Of a DNA stretch of 64,000 nucleotides, positions 44,047 through 51,524 are shown one piece after another; the first letter of the stretch is position 1; the number at the start of each line of letters is the position of its first letter. A program made the translations under genes and the position numbers. The notes below the pieces were generated by a model. That model was not told the origin of the DNA. It made no database searches and saw only the letters and a list, made by a program, of their open reading frames with translations. Origin of the DNA: Escherichia coli. GTDB lineage: Bacteria > Pseudomonadota > Gammaproteobacteria > Enterobacterales > Enterobacteriaceae. The DNA is taken from the NCBI RefSeq assembly GCF_030013595.1, contig NZ_CP122768.1; one strand, written 5' to 3'.

Positions 44047-44072
44047 CGTATAGCTTAACGTGTAGCTAAAAA
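44047..44072. repeat. 26-nt direct repeat (candidate integrase arm-type site), distal copy
   Basis: CGTATAGCTTAACGTGTAGCTAAAAA differs by 1 nt from CGTATAGCTAAACGTGTAGCTAAAAA at 54028-54053. Confidence 0.6.
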
Positions 44073-44622
44073 TGTTTGCTGCAAAAGTATACAATTTTAA
44101 CCGTTATGACTCCCTGTTATCCGTTATCAAGCTGGTGGATGATCATGGATAACCCGTTATGGGAATCCCCATATCGGCATCAGGCCCATGCCATAACAAA
44201 AACCCCATATTCGTGGGTTTTCTGTGTTGTGGCTATTCTGCCGTTGCCGTGCTGGTGGATATTTCCGGTATGTGGCTCACCATATCGGCATCACGCCCAC
44301 CAGCGCGACGCATTTTTTTAATTTCGCGGGTGTAAAAATTTGACGGGGCGGGCGGTCCTATAAGCAATGGGGGGTAGGGATTTCGATCCCCCCTCCTGAA
44401 TGCAATTTTCCGTATGTGGCTGTGCGGCAATCATACTCGTCACATGTTTTTGACAATAAAAGGCCCGACCGTGAGACTCACAAACAAAAAAGTTACGGAG
44501 AAACAGGGGATCGGGCTCGGTTGCCGCTAAATCTATTCAATTAAAAGAAGATGTCAATAGGGAAAACGAAAAAAAACAATGCTGATATTGTCATAATTTG
44601 AACAAAACCACTATATGTAGTT

Positions 44623-44853
44623 TTAGTTCATGAGGTTAGTCGCTACCAGATGCGTCAATAGTTTTTTGCTATTAATAATCCCTCTTTTTCCATCGGGAGC
44701 TTTGCACTTGTCACTACCTGGTAACTCCTGGTGGCGTTCCTGTTGCAGCACAACGGAAACAGGCGCTGAACACCTGTTAATTTTGCTTGCAGGTTGTTTG
44801 ATTTCGGCAATGCTGCGGATCATCTCCAGCATATCGGCTTCGGTGATGGTCAT
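44623..44853 (-). CDS. hypothetical small protein (76 aa)
   Basis: The ORF is preceded by an AAGGTG Shine-Dalgarno 6 nt from the ATG. I recognise no family, and it lies in an otherwise ORF-poor region. Confidence 0.35.
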   Translation of the reverse strand: MTITEADMLEMIRSIAEIKQPASKINRCSAPVSVVLQQERHQELPGSDKCKAPDGKRGIINSKKLLTHLVATNLMN

Positions 44854-44884
44854 GATTTACACCTTAGGAAATCTTAGGGGCTGG

Positions 44885-45142
44885 TTGACACTTTCCGGCT
44901 TAAGACCTTAACAAATCTTAACATCGCAGGTTGACACACTTGACACTTTTTCGCGAAAAACCTTATCAAACCTTAGCATTTCTAAGCATGGCAACTTGAC
45001 ACTTTTCGCGATTTTTTCGGCTTTTTGACGTGGTAAATCTGGCGCAAAGCCAGTAACGGCGGGGTTTACAGCGAGGTTGACACTTTTTCGCGTTCAGAGT
45101 GTAAAGTGTCAACCTGGCAAGCTGCTCAACTTGACACTTTTT
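44885..45142. repeat. iteron array TTGACACTTT(TT)CGCG (at least 6 direct copies plus 1 inverted)
   Basis: Copies start at 44885, 44931, 44940, 44996, 45077 and 45131, with one inverted copy at 45103-45112. They are interspersed with CCTTA(G/A/T) repeats and lie between the Nu1-like gene and the 76-aa ORF. Confidence 0.8.
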
Positions 45143-45146
45143 GAGG

Positions 45147-45674
45147 TCATTGATGGCCTGATTTTTCCCACTCAGCCAGGGCGTTTAGTCCGGCTTCACT
45201 CCAGTTATCCAGCTCATCGGGACAATCACCTGCAACATAGCAGAGCTCACAACGCAGCATACGAATTGCCAGCCTGGCATTTTCCCGAAAATCATACTGC
45301 TCAAAGTAATATTGCCCAGCATAATCCTCAAGGCAGATAGCACCATCATCAAGAAATTGCACTTCACAGCATAGTTCCCCGGCTGCATCCTGTACACGCT
45401 GCTGTATGTCATTGTCCGTTACTGGTGCAGGGATTTTACCGTCTCTGGCCTTAACTGCTTTCCAGAACTCGCCCCACGTCATTTCCAGCGTTCTCTCTGG
45501 CCACATTTCAGAAACGGTATCTTTTCCCTGTGCTGGTGGGCTGTTCCGCTGCTCTGTCGCTTCCACATCGATTTTTTTACCGGACATGACCACTTCGCCT
45601 TTCTCGATCCAGTCGTAAACTGTCTGGCGGCTTACGCCTTTGTGTTTGGCATATTCTGCCTTGCTCATAAACAT
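45147..45674 (-). CDS. protein with a lambda Nu1 (small terminase)-like N-terminal HTH; candidate packaging-specificity factor
   Basis: 175 aa. The N-terminus SKAEYAKHKGVSRQTVYDWIEKGEV resembles lambda Nu1 NKKQLADIFGASIRTIQNWQEQGMPV. The rest is unrecognised and Cys-rich. A good Shine-Dalgarno (GAGGGGAAG) precedes the start. Confidence 0.55.
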   Translation of the reverse strand: MFMSKAEYAKHKGVSRQTVYDWIEKGEVVMSGKKIDVEATEQRNSPPAQGKDTVSEMWPERTLEMTWGEFWKAVKARDGKIPAPVTDNDIQQRVQDAAGELCCEVQFLDDGAICLEDYAGQYYFEQYDFRENARLAIRMLRCELCYVAGDCPDELDNWSEAGLNALAEWEKSGHQ

Positions 45675-45844
45675 GACACTTCCCCTCAGACTGTATTAAT
45701 GCGCCGGAAAGCGCGTGTATTTAAATCATCCCAGGAACCGTTGAGCACCAATTAGTTGCGCGAAGTAATCGGCACCAGCGTTCCGAACAATTTCCAACTT
45801 AACGTTCTGATCATTGTTTCCTGCTGCAGGGACAATCCCACGAT

Positions 45845-46498
45845 TCATAGCCAGCGCCCGGATATTTCTTCCAGTTTTTCCAGAGCTGGCTTGCAGGCCG
45901 CATCAATAACTTCACGGACCATTCCGGCGAGCTGTTCTTCTTCTGTCGGCGTTGTTACTTCCACACCTGATGGTTTCCCGCCCTTATCCCATACGCCCAA
46001 CGGTACGAGCGCAACGTGATCGATAAGAAATGGCGTACCCTCAATGAAAAAATTGTCCTCGCCCATTACATCAGGAACTTCTGCCCCACCGGACGCACCA
46101 CAAAACACAACCGACGGGCTGGTGGATACCTCCCCCCGTGCTTTCTGGATGTAATCGATGATTTCCTGCCCGTAAATCCGGCATACGCCCCACACCTCGT
46201 CACCGCGAATATACGGCAACATGACGGTGCCAATAATGCGCGACCGTTCGCCCACGTCTTCAAGGGTTTTGCTTTCGGGATGGTCGATAATGACGGGTAC
46301 TCCGGCGCAACGTTCCAGGAACTGCGGATTGAGATAAGTTTGCGGTGAACGCCAGACAAATTCTTTTTCTTCGGCGCGATAGGCCATTCCGGTTCCTGTG
46401 ATACGCAGGTTAATCAGCCACATGTTGGAAAACTGATAAGGCGACGGTAGCTGACCGTCCCGAATCTGCTTTGCCGCCTCAATTTCTGTTAAAAGCAT
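45845..46498 (-). CDS. DUF2213-like protein (phage scaffold/prohead-protease-like family)
   Basis: 217 aa. The motifs GVPVIIDHPES, IGTV and IDHVALVPLGVWDKGG follow the pattern I remember for DUF2213. This has not been verified by HMM. Confidence 0.5.
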   Translation of the reverse strand: MLLTEIEAAKQIRDGQLPSPYQFSNMWLINLRITGTGMAYRAEEKEFVWRSPQTYLNPQFLERCAGVPVIIDHPESKTLEDVGERSRIIGTVMLPYIRGDEVWGVCRIYGQEIIDYIQKARGEVSTSPSVVFCGASGGAEVPDVMGEDNFFIEGTPFLIDHVALVPLGVWDKGGKPSGVEVTTPTEEEQLAGMVREVIDAACKPALEKLEEISGRWL

Positions 46499-46562
46499 AA
46501 TGTCCCCCGGTTATAAGCAATAAGCCCCACCAAATCCGGCAGGGCTGAAATCAGCACGTTTT

Positions 46563-47147
46563 TCATGCCCCCGCGAGGCTTGCAACGTTAATTTTAACCA
46601 GGCGACGGGGAGGGATTTTGAAAGCACTAAGCCAGTTATTCGGATCCCCCTGATATTCAGTAATCCGCCGTCCGGCTTCATCCATTCTTACGGTTTTACG
46701 CAAATAGCCCGGCGTATTTTCCACAGCCCACTGAACACTGTCTTTTGCAGCCTGGTAAATCTGATCTTCCAGCACCGCCAGCGTTGCAGAATCTGAAACG
46801 GAACGAATATCCACATCACTGAATTTTTTAGCCAGCTTCTGTGCACCAATTAATGCACGCTTGCGGTAATCCATCGACTTTTCACCAGCAAACGGGGCTG
46901 GAGCGCGACGGCCCATATTGCTGTATGCGGAATCCGCTTTAGCCTGGGCTTCTGCCAGTGAGGATTCATCTTCGACTGACGCGACGATGTTTTTATTCGC
47001 GTCATCCTCGTCCGCTTTTGTGAAATCCTGTGCGGGGATCGCATTCAGAATTTCGATAATCTCCTGCGGAGTGCTGCCCTGCGACTCTGACAGAGCGTTA
47101 ACCACCTCCATCAGTTTTAATCGCAAATCTTCTTTGCTTGCTGGCAT
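46563..47147 (-). CDS. hypothetical protein (194 aa) with an acidic N-terminal half
   Basis: The ORF has a GAGAGG Shine-Dalgarno before the ATG at 47147; the ORF track begins 9 nt earlier at a GTG. I recognise no family. It lies immediately upstream of the DUF2213-like gene. Confidence 0.5.
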   Translation of the reverse strand: MPASKEDLRLKLMEVVNALSESQGSTPQEIIEILNAIPAQDFTKADEDDANKNIVASVEDESSLAEAQAKADSAYSNMGRRAPAPFAGEKSMDYRKRALIGAQKLAKKFSDVDIRSVSDSATLAVLEDQIYQAAKDSVQWAVENTPGYLRKTVRMDEAGRRITEYQGDPNNWLSAFKIPPRRLVKINVASLAGA

Positions 47148-47186
47148 TTTTACCACCTCTCTTTTTTCACCAAAAAATCACGACCA

Positions 47187-47360
47187 TCAGGCCGGACGTT
47201 CTACGGGATAAAGCGCCCGCTGCATTAAACGCCGGGCGACCTCATGAATGCTCGGAGCAATCCCCAGCGGAGAATTGCGGCGTTCCTCGTCCTGGATGCG
47301 CTGTAATGCTTCAATCTGATCACGAGCGAGTAAAACGGGTTTCACGCTGGCTTTTCTCAT
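47187..47360 (-). CDS. hypothetical small protein (57 aa)
   Basis: An AGGAG Shine-Dalgarno lies 8 nt before the ATG at 47360; alternative ATGs are at 47366 and 47384. It is the first ORF after the tandem terminators. Confidence 0.45.
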   Translation of the reverse strand: MRKASVKPVLLARDQIEALQRIQDEERRNSPLGIAPSIHEVARRLMQRALYPVERPA

Positions 47361-47486
47361 AGTCATATCTCCTGAACAAAACAATGATTATGATTGCACA
47401 AACTGAAATAACGATCTACATCATTGCAATTTATGAAACAATAACGCATGATGATCGCGTTCTTCCCATTGACTTCAATCACCTGA

Positions 47487-47525
47487 AAAACAAAGCCCGC
47501 AACACTTCTGGCTGCGGGTTTTTTA
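47487..47525. terminator. hairpin with T-runs on both strands
   Basis: A CCCGCA-N11-TGCGGG hairpin is followed by TTTTTT on the plus strand and by TTTGTTTTT on the minus strand. Confidence 0.55.
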
Positions 47526-47531
47526 CTGGCA

Positions 47532-47557
47532 CAAAAAAGCCGGGAAAAATCCCGGCC
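47532..47557 (-). terminator. rho-independent terminator after the PerC-like gene
   Basis: The minus strand reads GCCGGGA-tttt-TCCCGGC followed by TTTTTT, 5 nt after the stop codon. Confidence 0.75.
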
Positions 47558-47561
47558 TCCG

Positions 47562-47849
47562 TCACTGACTGCAATTTTTCGATCCAGGGTATTTCCTGAA
47601 TGCCTTACCATTGGGCTGATGTAATCCCATCCCGGCATGTGCCCGGCTGATGGTTTCGCGCATTTCCCCGAAATTATCCTGCCTTGCTGGTGGGCGTGCT
47701 GCCTTGCGGATACATTCCGCGCGACGTTTTGCCGCCTGTTCCCGTGCCTTGTCATCATTCGCCAGCATGATGACCTCAGCCCACCGCGCCGCCGCTCTCC
47801 GGTACAGACCACGCGCTTCCAGTGCTTCCGCTTTGCTGTCGTGAATCAT
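47562..47849 (-). CDS. PerC/Pch-like transcriptional regulator
   Basis: 95 aa. The N-terminal AEALEARGLYRRAAARWAEV matches the PerC-family signature as I recall it. Its start overlaps the upstream gene's stop by 4 nt. Confidence 0.55.
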   Translation of the reverse strand: MIHDSKAEALEARGLYRRAAARWAEVIMLANDDKAREQAAKRRAECIRKAARPPARQDNFGEMRETISRAHAGMGLHQPNGKAFRKYPGSKNCSQ

Positions 47850-48388
47850 GCGCCTGTTTTCTCCTTTGCTGCCCGGCGCTGACGTTTGCGCTTCTCATTC
47901 AGCGCCACCAGCCGCGTTTCTGCGTCCTGTTGTTCCTGTGGTGTCACCTCGCCGCACGGCTGGCCTTTCAGGTCGTAGCGTACCCCACCAGCCATTAAGG
48001 CGCGGTAATAGCGCGGACACTGCGCATAAGATGCCAGCGTCGCACGCAATGCCCCTGGACCGAATGCCAGCCCCCTGACGGCGAGATCCTGCATCAGGTC
48101 GTCGAATATCCCCACCTTAAGCGGCTTCGGTGCTTCCCGGCTGAATAATTCAGGCCACAACTCAGTGAGGCGGTTAACGCGCCTGCGGTTTTTGCGCTGG
48201 CGTTTGGTCATATGCCGCCACGGTGTCGCCCCTGTGGGCTTCTGCTGCGCTTTCTGGTTACCGGGCATCACTTTATGCGCCGATGTGGTTTTATCCTGCT
48301 CCTGCGCCGCCTGCGTCGTTTTCTGCGGCGTGCCGTAAATGCCTTTCGGTTTTCTGTTAATGGTCAGCTTAGTCATGCTTTGCCCCAT
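47846..48388 (-). CDS. FinO/ProQ-domain RNA-binding protein
   Basis: 180 aa. KPLKVGIFDDL ... LRATLASYAQCPRYYRAL..GGVRYDLKGQPCGEV aligns with E. coli ProQ RPLKIGIFQDL ... [35 protein letters not shown]. Both the N- and C-terminal tails are basic. Confidence 0.8.
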   Translation of the reverse strand: MGQSMTKLTINRKPKGIYGTPQKTTQAAQEQDKTTSAHKVMPGNQKAQQKPTGATPWRHMTKRQRKNRRRVNRLTELWPELFSREAPKPLKVGIFDDLMQDLAVRGLAFGPGALRATLASYAQCPRYYRALMAGGVRYDLKGQPCGEVTPQEQQDAETRLVALNEKRKRQRRAAKEKTGA

Positions 48389-48537
48389 CGTTTTTACTGG
48401 TTGCTACGTTGCCCAACGGCACTGACACAACATTCTGTTTTCATTTTTAACATTCCTGATTTTTTAATTCCTCACCTGCTGCACAGTGAAAATTTATGAA
48501 GTTAATAACAATATGATTTTAAATGTATTTTTAAGTA

Positions 48538-48856
48538 CTCACTTTTTAATCCTTATATATACGCAAAAGTGAGGTAAATAGTTAAGTTTTAGTTAATATC
48601 TTGCATGGTGTGTTTTTTAACCTACCTGTTATTTTTATTACCTCATTTCTATTAACTCACCATTCCTCACTTTTGTTCCTCACTTTTTATTATTCTTGTT
48701 CTGCTCCTCAGTCGTTTTCTTTATTGTTGTAATCTGTTGTTTTGCAATGTGTTTTTAACTCCTCACTTTTTGACCTATATACAGGTGAGAAAGTGAGGAG
48801 TGGCGTTGATTTTTTGTTAAATTACCCGCCATCCTCACTTTTGCTCCTCACTTTTT
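48538..48856. repeat. iteron array CCTCACTTTT(T) in AT-rich DNA: candidate island replication origin
   Basis: Direct copies lie at 48538, 48665, 48678, 48761, 48833 and 48846. Inverted copies lie at 48565-48574 and 48789-48800, and there are degenerate copies as well. The array is immediately downstream of the helicase gene. Confidence 0.75.
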
Positions 48857-50270
48857 ACAGTGGGCGCACATAATCACCGTCAATAGCGATTACGCCGTCG
48901 CTTTCCAGCTTGTACAGCCAGCGCCGGAAGTGTTTCATCTCATACCCCAGCTTTTTCATATCATCGCGGAGAAGGGCGATAGTGCACGCCTCCCCGTGTG
49001 CTGTTCGCGTTCTGATGCACTGCCATAGCGCAGCGTGATTTTCCGTCTTGTTCCCGGCCTCCTCGATGCGTTCCAGTTCAACAGGTGGGCGCGGCTTATC
49101 CACAACCACCAGCGACGTGATTAACTCCCCGTCAGTGTCGGTAAAAAGCTCCACCACGCGTAAATCATATGCAGCCTCTTTCAGTTCCTCCGCGTCCTTC
49201 ATTTTGGTGCAGGAGATAACCAGGGCTTCACTGTCCGCACCTTCACGGCGAATACGGTATTCAGCGTCCAGAGATGCACGAAATGCACTGGAACCACGCG
49301 CCCCTTTTGTTTCATCCTTGCCGGAATGGTGAACCACCAGTACCGTGGCCCCTGTGCGTCGTTTCAGTTCGTCACATCCACGGATAAACGCCCCCATATC
49401 CCGCGCGTCATTTTCATCATTACCGCCAAAGCAACGCGCCAGCGTATCCAGAATAATCATGCGTACCGGTTTACCCGTTTCCCGTTCAACCTGACGGGAA
49501 GCGATGACCATTTCATCAACATCAAGCGGGACCGCCGGAAAAATCGGGCGGTTTACCAGGTACAGATTTTTCACCCGTTCATCATTAACGATTTCCCATG
49601 CTTTGATACGACGAGGAACACCGATCCCGCCCTCACCAACGACATACATAACCGCACCATGTACAACCCTGCGACCTCCCCAGTGGCGACCAGTGGCAAC
49701 ATGACACGCCCAGGAACACGCGAGGAACGATTTATAGGAACCGCTCGCGCCGTATGTGCTGCACAACGAATTAGCCGGAATCACGCCCTTAACGACATAA
49801 TCAAGCTGTGTGTCGTATCCTGCAGATCCAATACTCATTGGTAGCGTGGTTTTTCGCTGGCTGTATTGCTCGTCAGTAAGTATTTCCCCGCGCTCTGCCT
49901 GTTCGCGGATCCGTTGCAGGTAGTCGTGCCAGTTCTCCAGCTTCTGGCTGTGCATTCCCTCAGGGTAATAATTCGCATCCCGTACACCTGCCGCCGCCAG
50001 TTTTTGCCCGATGGCATTAATATTTGACGGCTTGATGTGGCCTGCCTTGTACAGCCGGACACAATAGCGACCATCGTCGATAATTTTCAGGTCTGCCAGT
50101 TCGTCAAGCTGGCTGTCTCCCAGCCATACAGGCGGAACATTGTCGCCAGCAAGTCGCCCGTCCTGTTCCTGCCATTGTTTCGCGTGCGCCCAGGCATCAC
50201 TACCCGCAAAAATAATGACTTCGGTCATTTTGTCGTGTGGCTGTTTTTTTAAGTTCGGTGCCAGTTTCAT
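48855..50270 (-). CDS. RepA/AAA_25-type replicative helicase-like initiator
   Basis: 471 aa with a RecA-fold core: Walker A-like GASGSYKS, Walker B MIILD and an HHSGK motif. The C-terminus is wHTH-like. It is translationally coupled to the upstream ORF. Confidence 0.7.
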   Translation of the reverse strand: MKLAPNLKKQPHDKMTEVIIFAGSDAWAHAKQWQEQDGRLAGDNVPPVWLGDSQLDELADLKIIDDGRYCVRLYKAGHIKPSNINAIGQKLAAAGVRDANYYPEGMHSQKLENWHDYLQRIREQAERGEILTDEQYSQRKTTLPMSIGSAGYDTQLDYVVKGVIPANSLCSTYGASGSYKSFLACSWACHVATGRHWGGRRVVHGAVMYVVGEGGIGVPRRIKAWEIVNDERVKNLYLVNRPIFPAVPLDVDEMVIASRQVERETGKPVRMIILDTLARCFGGNDENDARDMGAFIRGCDELKRRTGATVLVVHHSGKDETKGARGSSAFRASLDAEYRIRREGADSEALVISCTKMKDAEELKEAAYDLRVVELFTDTDGELITSLVVVDKPRPPVELERIEEAGNKTENHAALWQCIRTRTAHGEACTIALLRDDMKKLGYEMKHFRRWLYKLESDGVIAIDGDYVRPL

Positions 50271-50566
50271 TTTGTGCCCCTGAATGCGTTAATCATGTTT
50301 TTCATTTTCTGAATATTTGCCCGTGCCTTTGCGTTGCTGGTGGGCTGTTTGCGTGGTGTGGCCTGTATCAGTGAAAAATCACGCCGGAACTGATAAACAG
50401 GCATCACGCAGTCGTAGCTGTACCCATCACGGCGGTAAGTAACGCACCGTCCGGCAATACTTTTAATCGTTACCGTGCCGCCGTAGTTATCCCGGAAAAT
50501 ATCGCCGGGGCGGATTTCAGGCCGAGGGAGACCACTGGCAGTAAAGCCAGAATTTTTCTTTTTCAT
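50267..50566 (-). CDS. hypothetical protein (99 aa)
   Basis: The ORF overlaps the rep start by 4 nt. I could not confidently recognise a family. Confidence 0.5.
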   Translation of the reverse strand: MKKKNSGFTASGLPRPEIRPGDIFRDNYGGTVTIKSIAGRCVTYRRDGYSYDCVMPVYQFRRDFSLIQATPRKQPTSNAKARANIQKMKNMINAFRGTK

Positions 50567-50570
50567 GGTT

Positions 50571-50771
50571 TTATTTTCCTGTCAGCAGTTCCGGTTTTAT
50601 TTCCGCACGAATACAGAGTTCAGAAAAAAATTCAGGAGAACCAACAATCTCATTACTTTTCAGTCGGCATTGTGATTTCACTTTCCCTTTATCCAGGTAA
50701 ACCAGTATGCGTCCGGTGAAATCATCTGGCACACTCAGGGTAATTGTCATTGTTGCTTGCTGATTATCCAT
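50571..50771 (-). CDS. hypothetical protein carrying one copy of the FTG(R/Q) module (66 aa)
   Basis: It shares the pattern FTGRILVYLDKGKV...VGSPEFFSEL with both halves of the upstream 121-aa protein. Confidence 0.5.
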   Translation of the reverse strand: MDNQQATMTITLSVPDDFTGRILVYLDKGKVKSQCRLKSNEIVGSPEFFSELCIRAEIKPELLTGK

Positions 50772-51129
50772 GATTCACCCCCTGAATAACCTGATAACCG
50801 CAACTGGTCAGCAATTCGATAAATTCCGGCAGTGTTCCGAAACAGCAATCATCTCGCAGCCGTTCTCGGGATACTTCAACGCCGTTTTCGTAGTGACTCA
50901 CCATGCGTCCGGTAAAATGCAGATCATCATCGTGATGGCTCGTTAACGGCTTAATCAGTCGCGCACGTTCTGCCAGCTCCAGCAATGCTTCAACGCTTCC
51001 GGCAATTGCACCATCCGGCAGGTGATAATTACTTGCCACGCGTCCATTCTCCACGTTAACCAGTAGCTGCCCGGTGAATTTCTCATCAAACTGAATGCTG
51101 TTAAGGTCAGAAATTGACAGGTTAATCAT
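50764..51129 (-). CDS. hypothetical protein carrying two tandem copies of the FTG(R/Q) module (121 aa)
   Basis: Internal duplication: FTGQLLVNVENGRV...AGSVEALLEL and FTGRMVSHYENGVEV...FGTLPEFIEL. It overlaps both neighbouring genes by 8 nt. Confidence 0.55.
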   Translation of the reverse strand: MINLSISDLNSIQFDEKFTGQLLVNVENGRVASNYHLPDGAIAGSVEALLELAERARLIKPLTSHHDDDLHFTGRMVSHYENGVEVSRERLRDDCCFGTLPEFIELLTSCGYQVIQGVNHG

Positions 51130-51325
51130 GGCGTACCTCCTGGCGAATACGGGCAGCGAATACCATCACGCAGCCATCAGGAGATTGCTGACGCGCTTCC
51201 TGTTCGCTGGTGGCCTCAATGGTAATCACGCGCGGTTGTGCCGTGCTCAGGGCGATAAAACGCCAGATGTATTTATTCAGGTTGTGCGAGTCCCGCCCTT
51301 GCGGGTGTGTGGTATGATTTCTCAT
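51122..51325 (-). CDS. Icd-like small protein (67 aa)
   Basis: This is the 3' third of the 286-aa ORF-track entry, starting at MRNHTTHPQGRDSH. The segment YIWRFIALS...IEATSEQEARQQSP.GCVMVFAARIRQE resembles proteins annotated as host cell division inhibitor Icd-like in satellite islands. That match is from memory only. Confidence 0.5.
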   Translation of the reverse strand: MRNHTTHPQGRDSHNLNKYIWRFIALSTAQPRVITIEATSEQEARQQSPDGCVMVFAARIRQEVRHD

Positions 51326-51422
51326 AGCTACCTCGATACTCTTTCTATCGTTGGTGGTTAGAAGCCCCGTTACTGCTCCAACAGTGCGGGGTTTCGTCGT
51401 TTCTGTGCCTTGCATTAACAAG

Positions 51423-51504
51423 GTGTAAGACACAATGTAAAATACAAGTGTCTTACACGTCAAGCCTTCAAAATAATTTTTTTTCGTGTATATTGTCTTA
51501 CACC
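51423..51504. promoter_or_regulatory. operator-like repeats in the divergent control region
   Basis: GTGTAAGACAC (51423-51433) and its exact inverted copy GTGTCTTACAC (51448-51458) are joined by a third copy, GTCTTACACC (51495-51504). They lie between the Icd-like operon and the plus-strand RHH-like gene. Confidence 0.6.
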
Positions 51505-51524
51505 AACAACATAAGGAGTTAGAC

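Follow-up and report, generated by a model that had tools for sequence, protein, structure and literature searches.

Two overlapping genes in the early operon of a PICI-type island of Escherichia coli, here called A and B, encode three paralogous modules, two of which are joined in a single polypeptide. By their sequence, the modules are members of the FsoA/GfoA/Rem family of small antirepressors (PHROG 340, PF27490), and we favor, with moderate confidence, a reading in which both proteins work in trans as small antirepressors against the repressors of resident or helper prophages. The family and its mechanism are already known from work on FsoA, GfoA and Rem. New here are the fusion of two modules in one protein, a module number that reaches three, and the position of the modules immediately behind an Icd-like gene in the early operon of a PICI. 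The window analyzed here is a stretch of 64,000 nucleotides, and all coordinates refer to positions within it.

Results

Three paralogous modules in two overlapping genes

Gene A (50764..51129, minus strand) encodes a polypeptide of 121 residues that contains two tandem FsoA/Rem-type modules. Module 1 spans residues 1-58 (50956..51129, minus strand) and module 2 spans residues 71-117 (50779..50919, minus strand); these segments are the first and second domains recognized by the family HMM. Gene B (50571..50771, minus strand) encodes 66 residues and consists of a single third module. The start of B is superimposed on the stop of A, and the 8 nt shared by the two genes read ATGGATAA. When the family HMM was run over the entire 64-kb window, it recognized A twice and B once, with no other match.

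The modules were compared with one another by Smith-Waterman local alignment, and z values were calculated against 2000 shuffles. A(1-62) scored 56 against A(63-121) (z = 9.1) and 79 against B (z = 15.7), and the comparison of A(63-121) with B gave a score of 47 (z = 6.6). In each comparison, the observed score was reached by 0 of the 2000 shuffles. Three paralogous modules had been proposed in the first-pass annotation, and these values bear the proposal out for every pair: the paralogy and the tandem duplication inside A are real, at a pairwise identity of only ~25-30%.

Each module is ~55 residues long, and all three copies share FTG[RQ], an [ED][NK]G hairpin turn and a helix ending in EL. 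These elements of the motif drawn up in the first-pass annotation stand, but its G-x-V element is off by one residue in module 2 of A, which reads ENG-V-E-V. The second half of B is one residue shorter. Module 1 of A resembles B and does not have the canonical C-terminal "AGYxVtPP" strand, whereas module 2 carries the canonical C-terminus in the form CGYQVIQG. The A and B reading frames are both intact and every family-conserved position is kept. An AlphaFold2 model of B (pLDDT 88) predicts a beta-hairpin followed by a helix; the model of A is poor (pLDDT 58) and too weak for use.

Sequence relationship to FsoA, GfoA and Rem

The first-pass annotation did not recognize the family, which already exists as PHROG 340 and as Pfam PF27490, "Rem". 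A matches PHROG 340 (phrog_340, labeled "unknown function") in two stretches at 1e-28 and B matches it at 5e-17; PF27490, which bears the name "Rem", is a precomputed Pfam flag on close homologues of A. Local scans of A and B with NCBIfam and with a copy of Pfam that lacks PF27490 returned nothing significant, and a tblastn search of GenBank phages with A gave no match, the family being reached only through a more typical member. No literature was retrieved under phrog_340, PF27490 or accession numbers. An exhaustive profile search of 1.84 billion representatives yielded only 95 clusters at E<=1e-3, nearly all of 56-95 residues and only a handful with two modules, with the consensus ..L.V...FTGRVLV..ENG.V.....L..dE.i.TL..F.ELA..AGy.V.pp. 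The named family members are from Enterobacterales, and every one is labeled "hypothetical". The norm is a single domain of ~60-90 residues; B falls within this range and A is a two-domain fusion.

The connection to proteins of tested function runs through Fels-1. With the module HMM, the Fels-1 open reading frame STM0898.2n obtains 91 bits. Scores against the family HMM are 63.6 bits for module 1 of A, 59.8 bits for module 2 of A and 88.6 bits for B. STM0898.2n is FsoA, because its exact N- and C-termini, MNSQQMM and EAGIRFEEISNVG, are encoded by the fsoA primers in the literature. Identity between FsoA and the window modules is only ~30%, and the alignments have z values of 10.6-12.5 (10.6 for module 1 of A and 11.2 for module 2). 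Other relatives are more distant. The module HMM gives 28.8 bits to a GfoA-type reading frame located 3' of dinI, whose C-terminus is that of the gfoA primer, and 28 bits to Rem of E. coli K-12. GftA shows significant similarity to FsoA (z = 8.5), but its direct comparison with the window modules is not significant.

As a guard against circularity, a second HMM was built from 71 FsoA-type sequences, with all E. coli relatives of A and B left out. Among 837 reading frames of the window, this FsoA-only HMM found only A (60.5 bits; 27.3 bits for module 1 and 31.4 bits for module 2) and B (50 bits, 1e-14). Probabilities from hhalign against FsoA were 98% for A, 99.1% for B and 95% for Rem; Rem aligned with B at 95% and with module 1 of A at 89%. 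Both the HMM bits and hhalign place the modules closer to FsoA than to Rem.

A few members of the family are fused to other domains: Bro-N, a zinc ribbon of the DnaG type, or a helical domain often encoded by a neighboring gene as well. The fusions examined (P0136, P0166, P0172, P0183 and P0156; loci L091-L093) carry Bro-N, a DnaG-type CHC2 zinc ribbon encoded beside an AlpA gene, or the helical phrog_5146/2512. P0136, annotated with Bro-N and Rem, matches the module HMM at 4.6e-22, and the stand-alone module P0124 matches the C-terminus of phrog_2379 at 7e-6. The Bro-N proteins phrog_2379 and phrog_4792, which are labeled "anti-repressor" by annotation, have the same module as A and B, placed C-terminal to Bro-N, but differ from A and B in being multidomain. 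The Bro-N proteins of PhiR26_1, Ab105-2phi and PSTNGR2lys were considered as counterparts of P0136 and have no module. STM2616 of Gifsy-1 (L095, 33513-34076; 187 residues; "similar to antirepressor") has a weakly module-like C-terminus (E ~0.006-0.012) and resembles the Bro-N plus module architecture of phrog_2379.

Several other resemblances were set aside. No genuine match emerged from searches of PDB sequences with A or with the family profile: designed armadillo repeats matched A but were judged spurious, with no stretch passing on its own, and a tandem RNF4 construct, the only PDB match of the family profile, was not taken as real. MORN_2/YwqK-type proteins (P0143, P0162 and P0171) match the module profile through the sum of many FTG....YENGQ.KS repeats. 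They were rejected as relatives, as MORN_2/YwqK repeats form arrays of ~23-residue beta-hairpins whereas the module includes a helix and is not built as an array; the resemblance is limited to the first hairpin (FTG..ENG.VKS) and we judge it to be convergent or very remote. A PADLOC scan gave no match, and a defense-system reading was set aside.

The island and its early operon

The genes lie within an element of ~10 kb (probable extent 44057..54053) with a copy of the 16-bp direct repeat AACGTGTAGCTAAAAA at either end (44057-44072 and 54038-54053), beside a tRNA-Pro gene (54172..54248). The repeats are probably the att sites of the island; the right-hand copy lies between the integrase gene and tRNA-Pro rather than within the tRNA. 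A yejM-like gene and an autotransporter gene flank the island. On the minus strand, the gene order is integrase, AlpA, Icd-like, A, B, DUF4222, RepA, ProQ/FinO-like, PerC and DUF2213-like. The tyrosine integrase (52721..53962, minus strand) was assigned from a homologue annotated as integrase, and the AlpA-family regulator (51987..52193, minus strand) matches Pfam Phage_AlpA at 4.5e-8. The Icd-like gene (51122..51322, minus strand) is the first of the operon; its RefSeq homologue is named "host cell division inhibitor Icd-like protein" and it matches phrog_6196. Between AlpA and the Icd-like gene, the plus strand carries a YlcI/YnfO-family gene that is divergent from the Icd-like gene.

The Icd-like gene overlaps A by 8 nt in the same manner as A overlaps B. 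Downstream of B, after a spacer of 4 nt, is a DUF4222 gene (50267..50566, minus strand; PF13973, E 2.7e-24), which is overlapped by 4 nt by the gene for a RepA-type AAA_25 helicase (48855..50270, minus strand; Pfam AAA_25 at 2e-44, full-length phrog_2850, RefSeq "helicase RepA family protein"). This helicase is the replication gene of the island and the last of the coupled block. The 4-nt spacer contradicts the first-pass statement that all junctions overlap. The fixed stoichiometry that had been deduced from those overlaps also fails, on account of the spacer and because related islands hold from zero to three modules.

By gene content, the element has the features of a PICI: an integrase next to att sites and a tRNA gene, an AlpA regulator, its own replication gene and a length of ~10 kb. 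The gene set is as described for Gram-negative PICIs, and the PerC, ProQ/FinO, Icd-like and YlcI/YnfO genes match lists for E. coli and Enterobacter PICIs. We therefore take it to be a PICI-type island. The PerC-family and ProQ/FinO-family genes (47562-48388) overlap by 4 nt, and a PerC homologue of another E. coli PICI has been reported as a silencer of LEE expression. Counterparts of sid/psu/delta, the alpha primase-helicase and epsilon were absent from the named Pfam, PHROG and NCBIfam matches of the scanned island reading frames. No DicA/GfoR-type repressor gene is encoded in the 64-kb window.

The promoter/operator region of the operon lies at 51423..51503 and contains a sigma-70-like promoter (51463->51434, minus strand). 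The window has just three exact copies of a 10-bp core, GTGTAAGACA, and all of them fall in this 81-bp region. A pair of the copies forms an 11-bp inverted repeat, GTGTAAGACAC/GTGTCTTACAC, around the -35/-10 elements; the third, another 35 bp upstream, is at the 5' end of the YlcI/YnfO-family gene that is divergent from the operon. The copies are a probable operator set for an island regulator. No LexA box was found at the operon promoter. Because an inverted repeat brackets the promoter and there is no LexA box, the Icd-like operon looks repressor-controlled, like fsoA in Fels-1.

Tested relatives and the likely target

Work on GfoA, GfhA, GftA and FsoA has shown that these proteins are small binders of the short, non-cleavable CI-like repressors GfoR, GfhR and GtgR, which are of the same class as DicA and RacR (Lemire, Figueroa-Bossi & Bossi 2011, PMC3121763). 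The sizes of the antirepressor-repressor complexes are consistent with A2B2, the antirepressors cause the repressor to leave its operator, and they can act on heteroimmune prophages (PMC3121763). FsoA inactivates the Gifsy-2 repressor in trans but has no detectable part in the induction of its own phage, Fels-1, for which it is dispensable (PMC3121763). Rem, from E. coli K-12's Qin prophage, was found by iterative searches seeded with Salmonella GfoA and FsoA; it is an antirepressor that derepresses the DicA-controlled dicB promoter 165-fold, and its expression leads to filamentation that depends on DicB and DicF (Ragunathan et al. 2023, PMC10448788). Three other K-12 candidates from similarity searches did not derepress dicBp (PMC10448788), and so family-level similarity is no guarantee of activity on a given repressor. 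Among the candidate roles listed in the first-pass annotation, anti-repressor or derepression function is the one backed by homology to these tested proteins.

FsoA has several features in common with the island modules. It is a homologue of all three modules and of the size class of B, it is encoded in a repressor-controlled early operon among small reading frames, and it acts on the repressor of another prophage. It differs in that it is a single 78-residue module in a complete phage, whereas three modules, two of them fused, are found here in a satellite island. GfoA, GfhA and GftA (of Gifsy-1, -3 and -2, respectively) belong to the same family but have one module each and are LexA-controlled, being encoded in a dinI operon behind a LexA box. 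Rem gives its name to the Pfam family flagged on close A homologues, and its antirepressor activity on DicA, a short repressor, has been tested, but it is distant, has an extra N-terminal hairpin and is a single gene in a nin-like region of a cryptic prophage. The N-terminal beta-hairpin-like segment of Rem (L094, 8652-8903), AVCVENGNLVSHYRI, matches the module hairpin a second time, and Rem itself may be a one-and-a-half-module protein.

One alternative is that the modules derepress cryptic-prophage loci such as dicBF and thereby, together with the Icd-like protein, arrest division and block competing phages, helper induction not being the goal. Consistent with this, Rem expression filaments cells through DicB and DicF, DicB also blocks phages that use ManXYZ (PMC10448788), and DicA/RacR-type repressors have been reported in most E. 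coli strains (PMC3121763). The Icd-like gene, moreover, lies directly upstream of A and overlaps it, and P1 Icd inhibits FtsZ. The modules, however, are nearer to FsoA than to Rem, nothing links the island to Qin- or Rac-type loci, and 40 related islands hold an Icd-like gene without any module. We consider this alternative unlikely, and our preferred target remains the repressor of a resident or helper prophage.

Copy number, distribution and selection

Related islands were surveyed by anchoring on DUF4222, which gave 80 IMG/VR loci, mostly elements of ~10 kb. Modules were counted in the 73 of these that have both an Icd-like gene and DUF4222. Between the two genes, 40 loci have no module, 27 have one, five have two, and a single locus has three, the arrangement of the window. 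The commonest form is a lone B-like module; an A1-like module alone, the fused A1A2 form alone, and A1 with B were also found. With zero to three modules across 73 islands, the module is an accessory, shuffled cassette and not a core island function, and its absence from 40 of them means that the island life cycle cannot depend on it. Tandem or fused modules also recur in other lineages. In two Salmonella prophages (L004 and L005, 6810-7234), adjacent genes for modules of 62 and 77 residues lie in the early-left operon, which indicates that tandem copies are not peculiar to the island.

The interval between the Icd-like gene and DUF4222 ranges from 205 to 1263 bp and forms a recombination mosaic in which small ORFs from at least six families replace one another (phrog_2512/24341/5146, 2196, 340, 1478, 3672 and others), all of them PHROGs of unknown function. 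Several of these small reading frames (IMG/VR loci L008-L087) are acidic and, by eye, seem helical, and they may represent alternative small effectors in one slot.

This mosaicism, together with the occurrence of the same small-ORF families in phages, is compatible with the view that the modules are passenger cassettes, acquired by recombination from lambdoid early-left operons, that contribute little or nothing to the island and are decaying. Public data also contain in-frame deletion hybrids of A of 67-91 residues (P0033, P0035, P0038, P0046 and P0048), which join module 1 to module 2 in differing registers, in some cases on several contigs, and look like recombination products of diverged repeats. 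The dN/dS ratio of the module genes, ~0.5 in pairwise comparisons, indicates only moderate constraint, and FsoA is likewise not needed for Fels-1 induction. Intact reading frames in which all family-conserved positions and the start/stop coupling are kept speak against this view. The identical A protein is present on 129 public contigs (all hypothetical) and the identical B on 149, and the 121-residue form extends into Salmonella at 74-82% identity. Among 5426 complete E. coli genomes, approximately 123 have the 1.1-kb arrangement of the window over at least 80% of its length. On balance, it seems quite improbable that the modules are mere passengers.

True phages (Fels-1, Salmonella and Enterobacter prophages, and Stx phages) have their family members in the early-left operon, with the CI-type repressor on one side and xis/int on the other, sometimes as two adjacent copies; the replication genes are located elsewhere, across the immunity region. 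This location, and the 40 of 73 islands that have the same DUF4222-RepA genes without the domain, make the replication-accessory role suggested in the first-pass annotation unlikely. More generally, we think it very unlikely that the modules bind a target other than a prophage repressor, either the island's own regulator for self-activation or a replication protein acting with DUF4222/RepA. In favor of such a target, P0166 joins a module to a DnaG-type zinc ribbon, A and B are directly upstream of DUF4222-RepA, and an operator of its own and a divergent YlcI/YnfO-family gene are present in the island. Against it, no DicA-like repressor is encoded by the island, and CI-like repressors are the target of all tested relatives.

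Discussion

A model for A and B as small antirepressors would run as follows. Derepression of the island early operon would produce one transcript for the Icd-like protein, A, B, DUF4222 and RepA. Each module would then bind a dimeric, non-cleavable CI-like repressor of the DicA/RacR/GfoR/GtgR type from a resident lambdoid prophage, and the module-bound repressor would release its operator. The prophage, presumably the helper that supplies capsids to the island, would thereby be induced without RecA cleavage. A would most simply be a single-chain, asymmetric antirepressor dimer, because the complexes of its published relatives look A2B2, and B would be the third module, dimerizing on its own. 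Given that the modules are only ~25-30% identical, a wider range of repressors, and hence of helpers, would probably be unlocked. The antirepressor activity, the single-chain dimer, the target's identity and helper induction as the purpose are what we infer from the paralogy, family membership, operon context and copy-number variation described above. Besides family membership, the model is favored by the early-operon setting that fsoA also has, the operator set of the island, the Bro-N "anti-repressor" proteins with the module, tandem modules in other lineages and the dN/dS of ~0.5. Counting against it are the lack of a DicA/GfoR-type repressor gene in the window, the 40 of 73 related islands that have no module, the dispensability of FsoA for Fels-1 induction, and the K-12 candidates that did not act on dicBp.

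P4 epsilon is a satellite early-operon protein that derepresses the helper prophage, in its case P2, and a helper-prophage derepressor, "Ash", is annotated in satellites. A and B as proposed here would be like P4 epsilon in function, as early-operon derepressors of a satellite directed at a helper prophage. The island is unlike P4 in that it has int, AlpA and a RepA helicase, and sid/psu/delta are not among the named matches of the scanned reading frames. The immI operon of P1, in which c4 and icd are followed by the antirepressor gene ant1/2, offers a parallel in gene order: a small Icd gene precedes an antirepressor gene, putative in the island. P1 Ant1/2, however, is far larger than A or B and has no detected similarity to them, and immI is controlled by the C4 antisense RNA, for which no counterpart was identified at the island.

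A more specific form of the antirepressor model is possible, though we hold it only tentatively. The three modules, including the fused single-chain heterodimer, might serve as a "key ring" with which the PICI satellite, rather than the SOS response, times the lytic switch of resident helper prophages whose repressors are non-cleavable and of the DicA/GfoR type. If this is true, the island has a PICI counterpart of P4 epsilon drawn from a different protein family, and the number and type of modules would set the range of usable helpers.

Because two modules are naturally fused in A, the proposed A2B2 stoichiometry can readily be tested with it, and it offers a way to a first structure for the family. 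An annotation can also be given to two genes that RefSeq labels "hypothetical" across thousands of genomes. If the two proteins are active antirepressors, then a common class of satellite islands of E. coli and Salmonella could trigger neighboring prophages, including lambdoids of the Stx and Gifsy types with repressors that RecA does not cleave. The "prophage cross-talk" network described by Lemire et al. (PMC3121763) would then reach satellites, and satellite activation would be tied to the release of phage-borne virulence genes.
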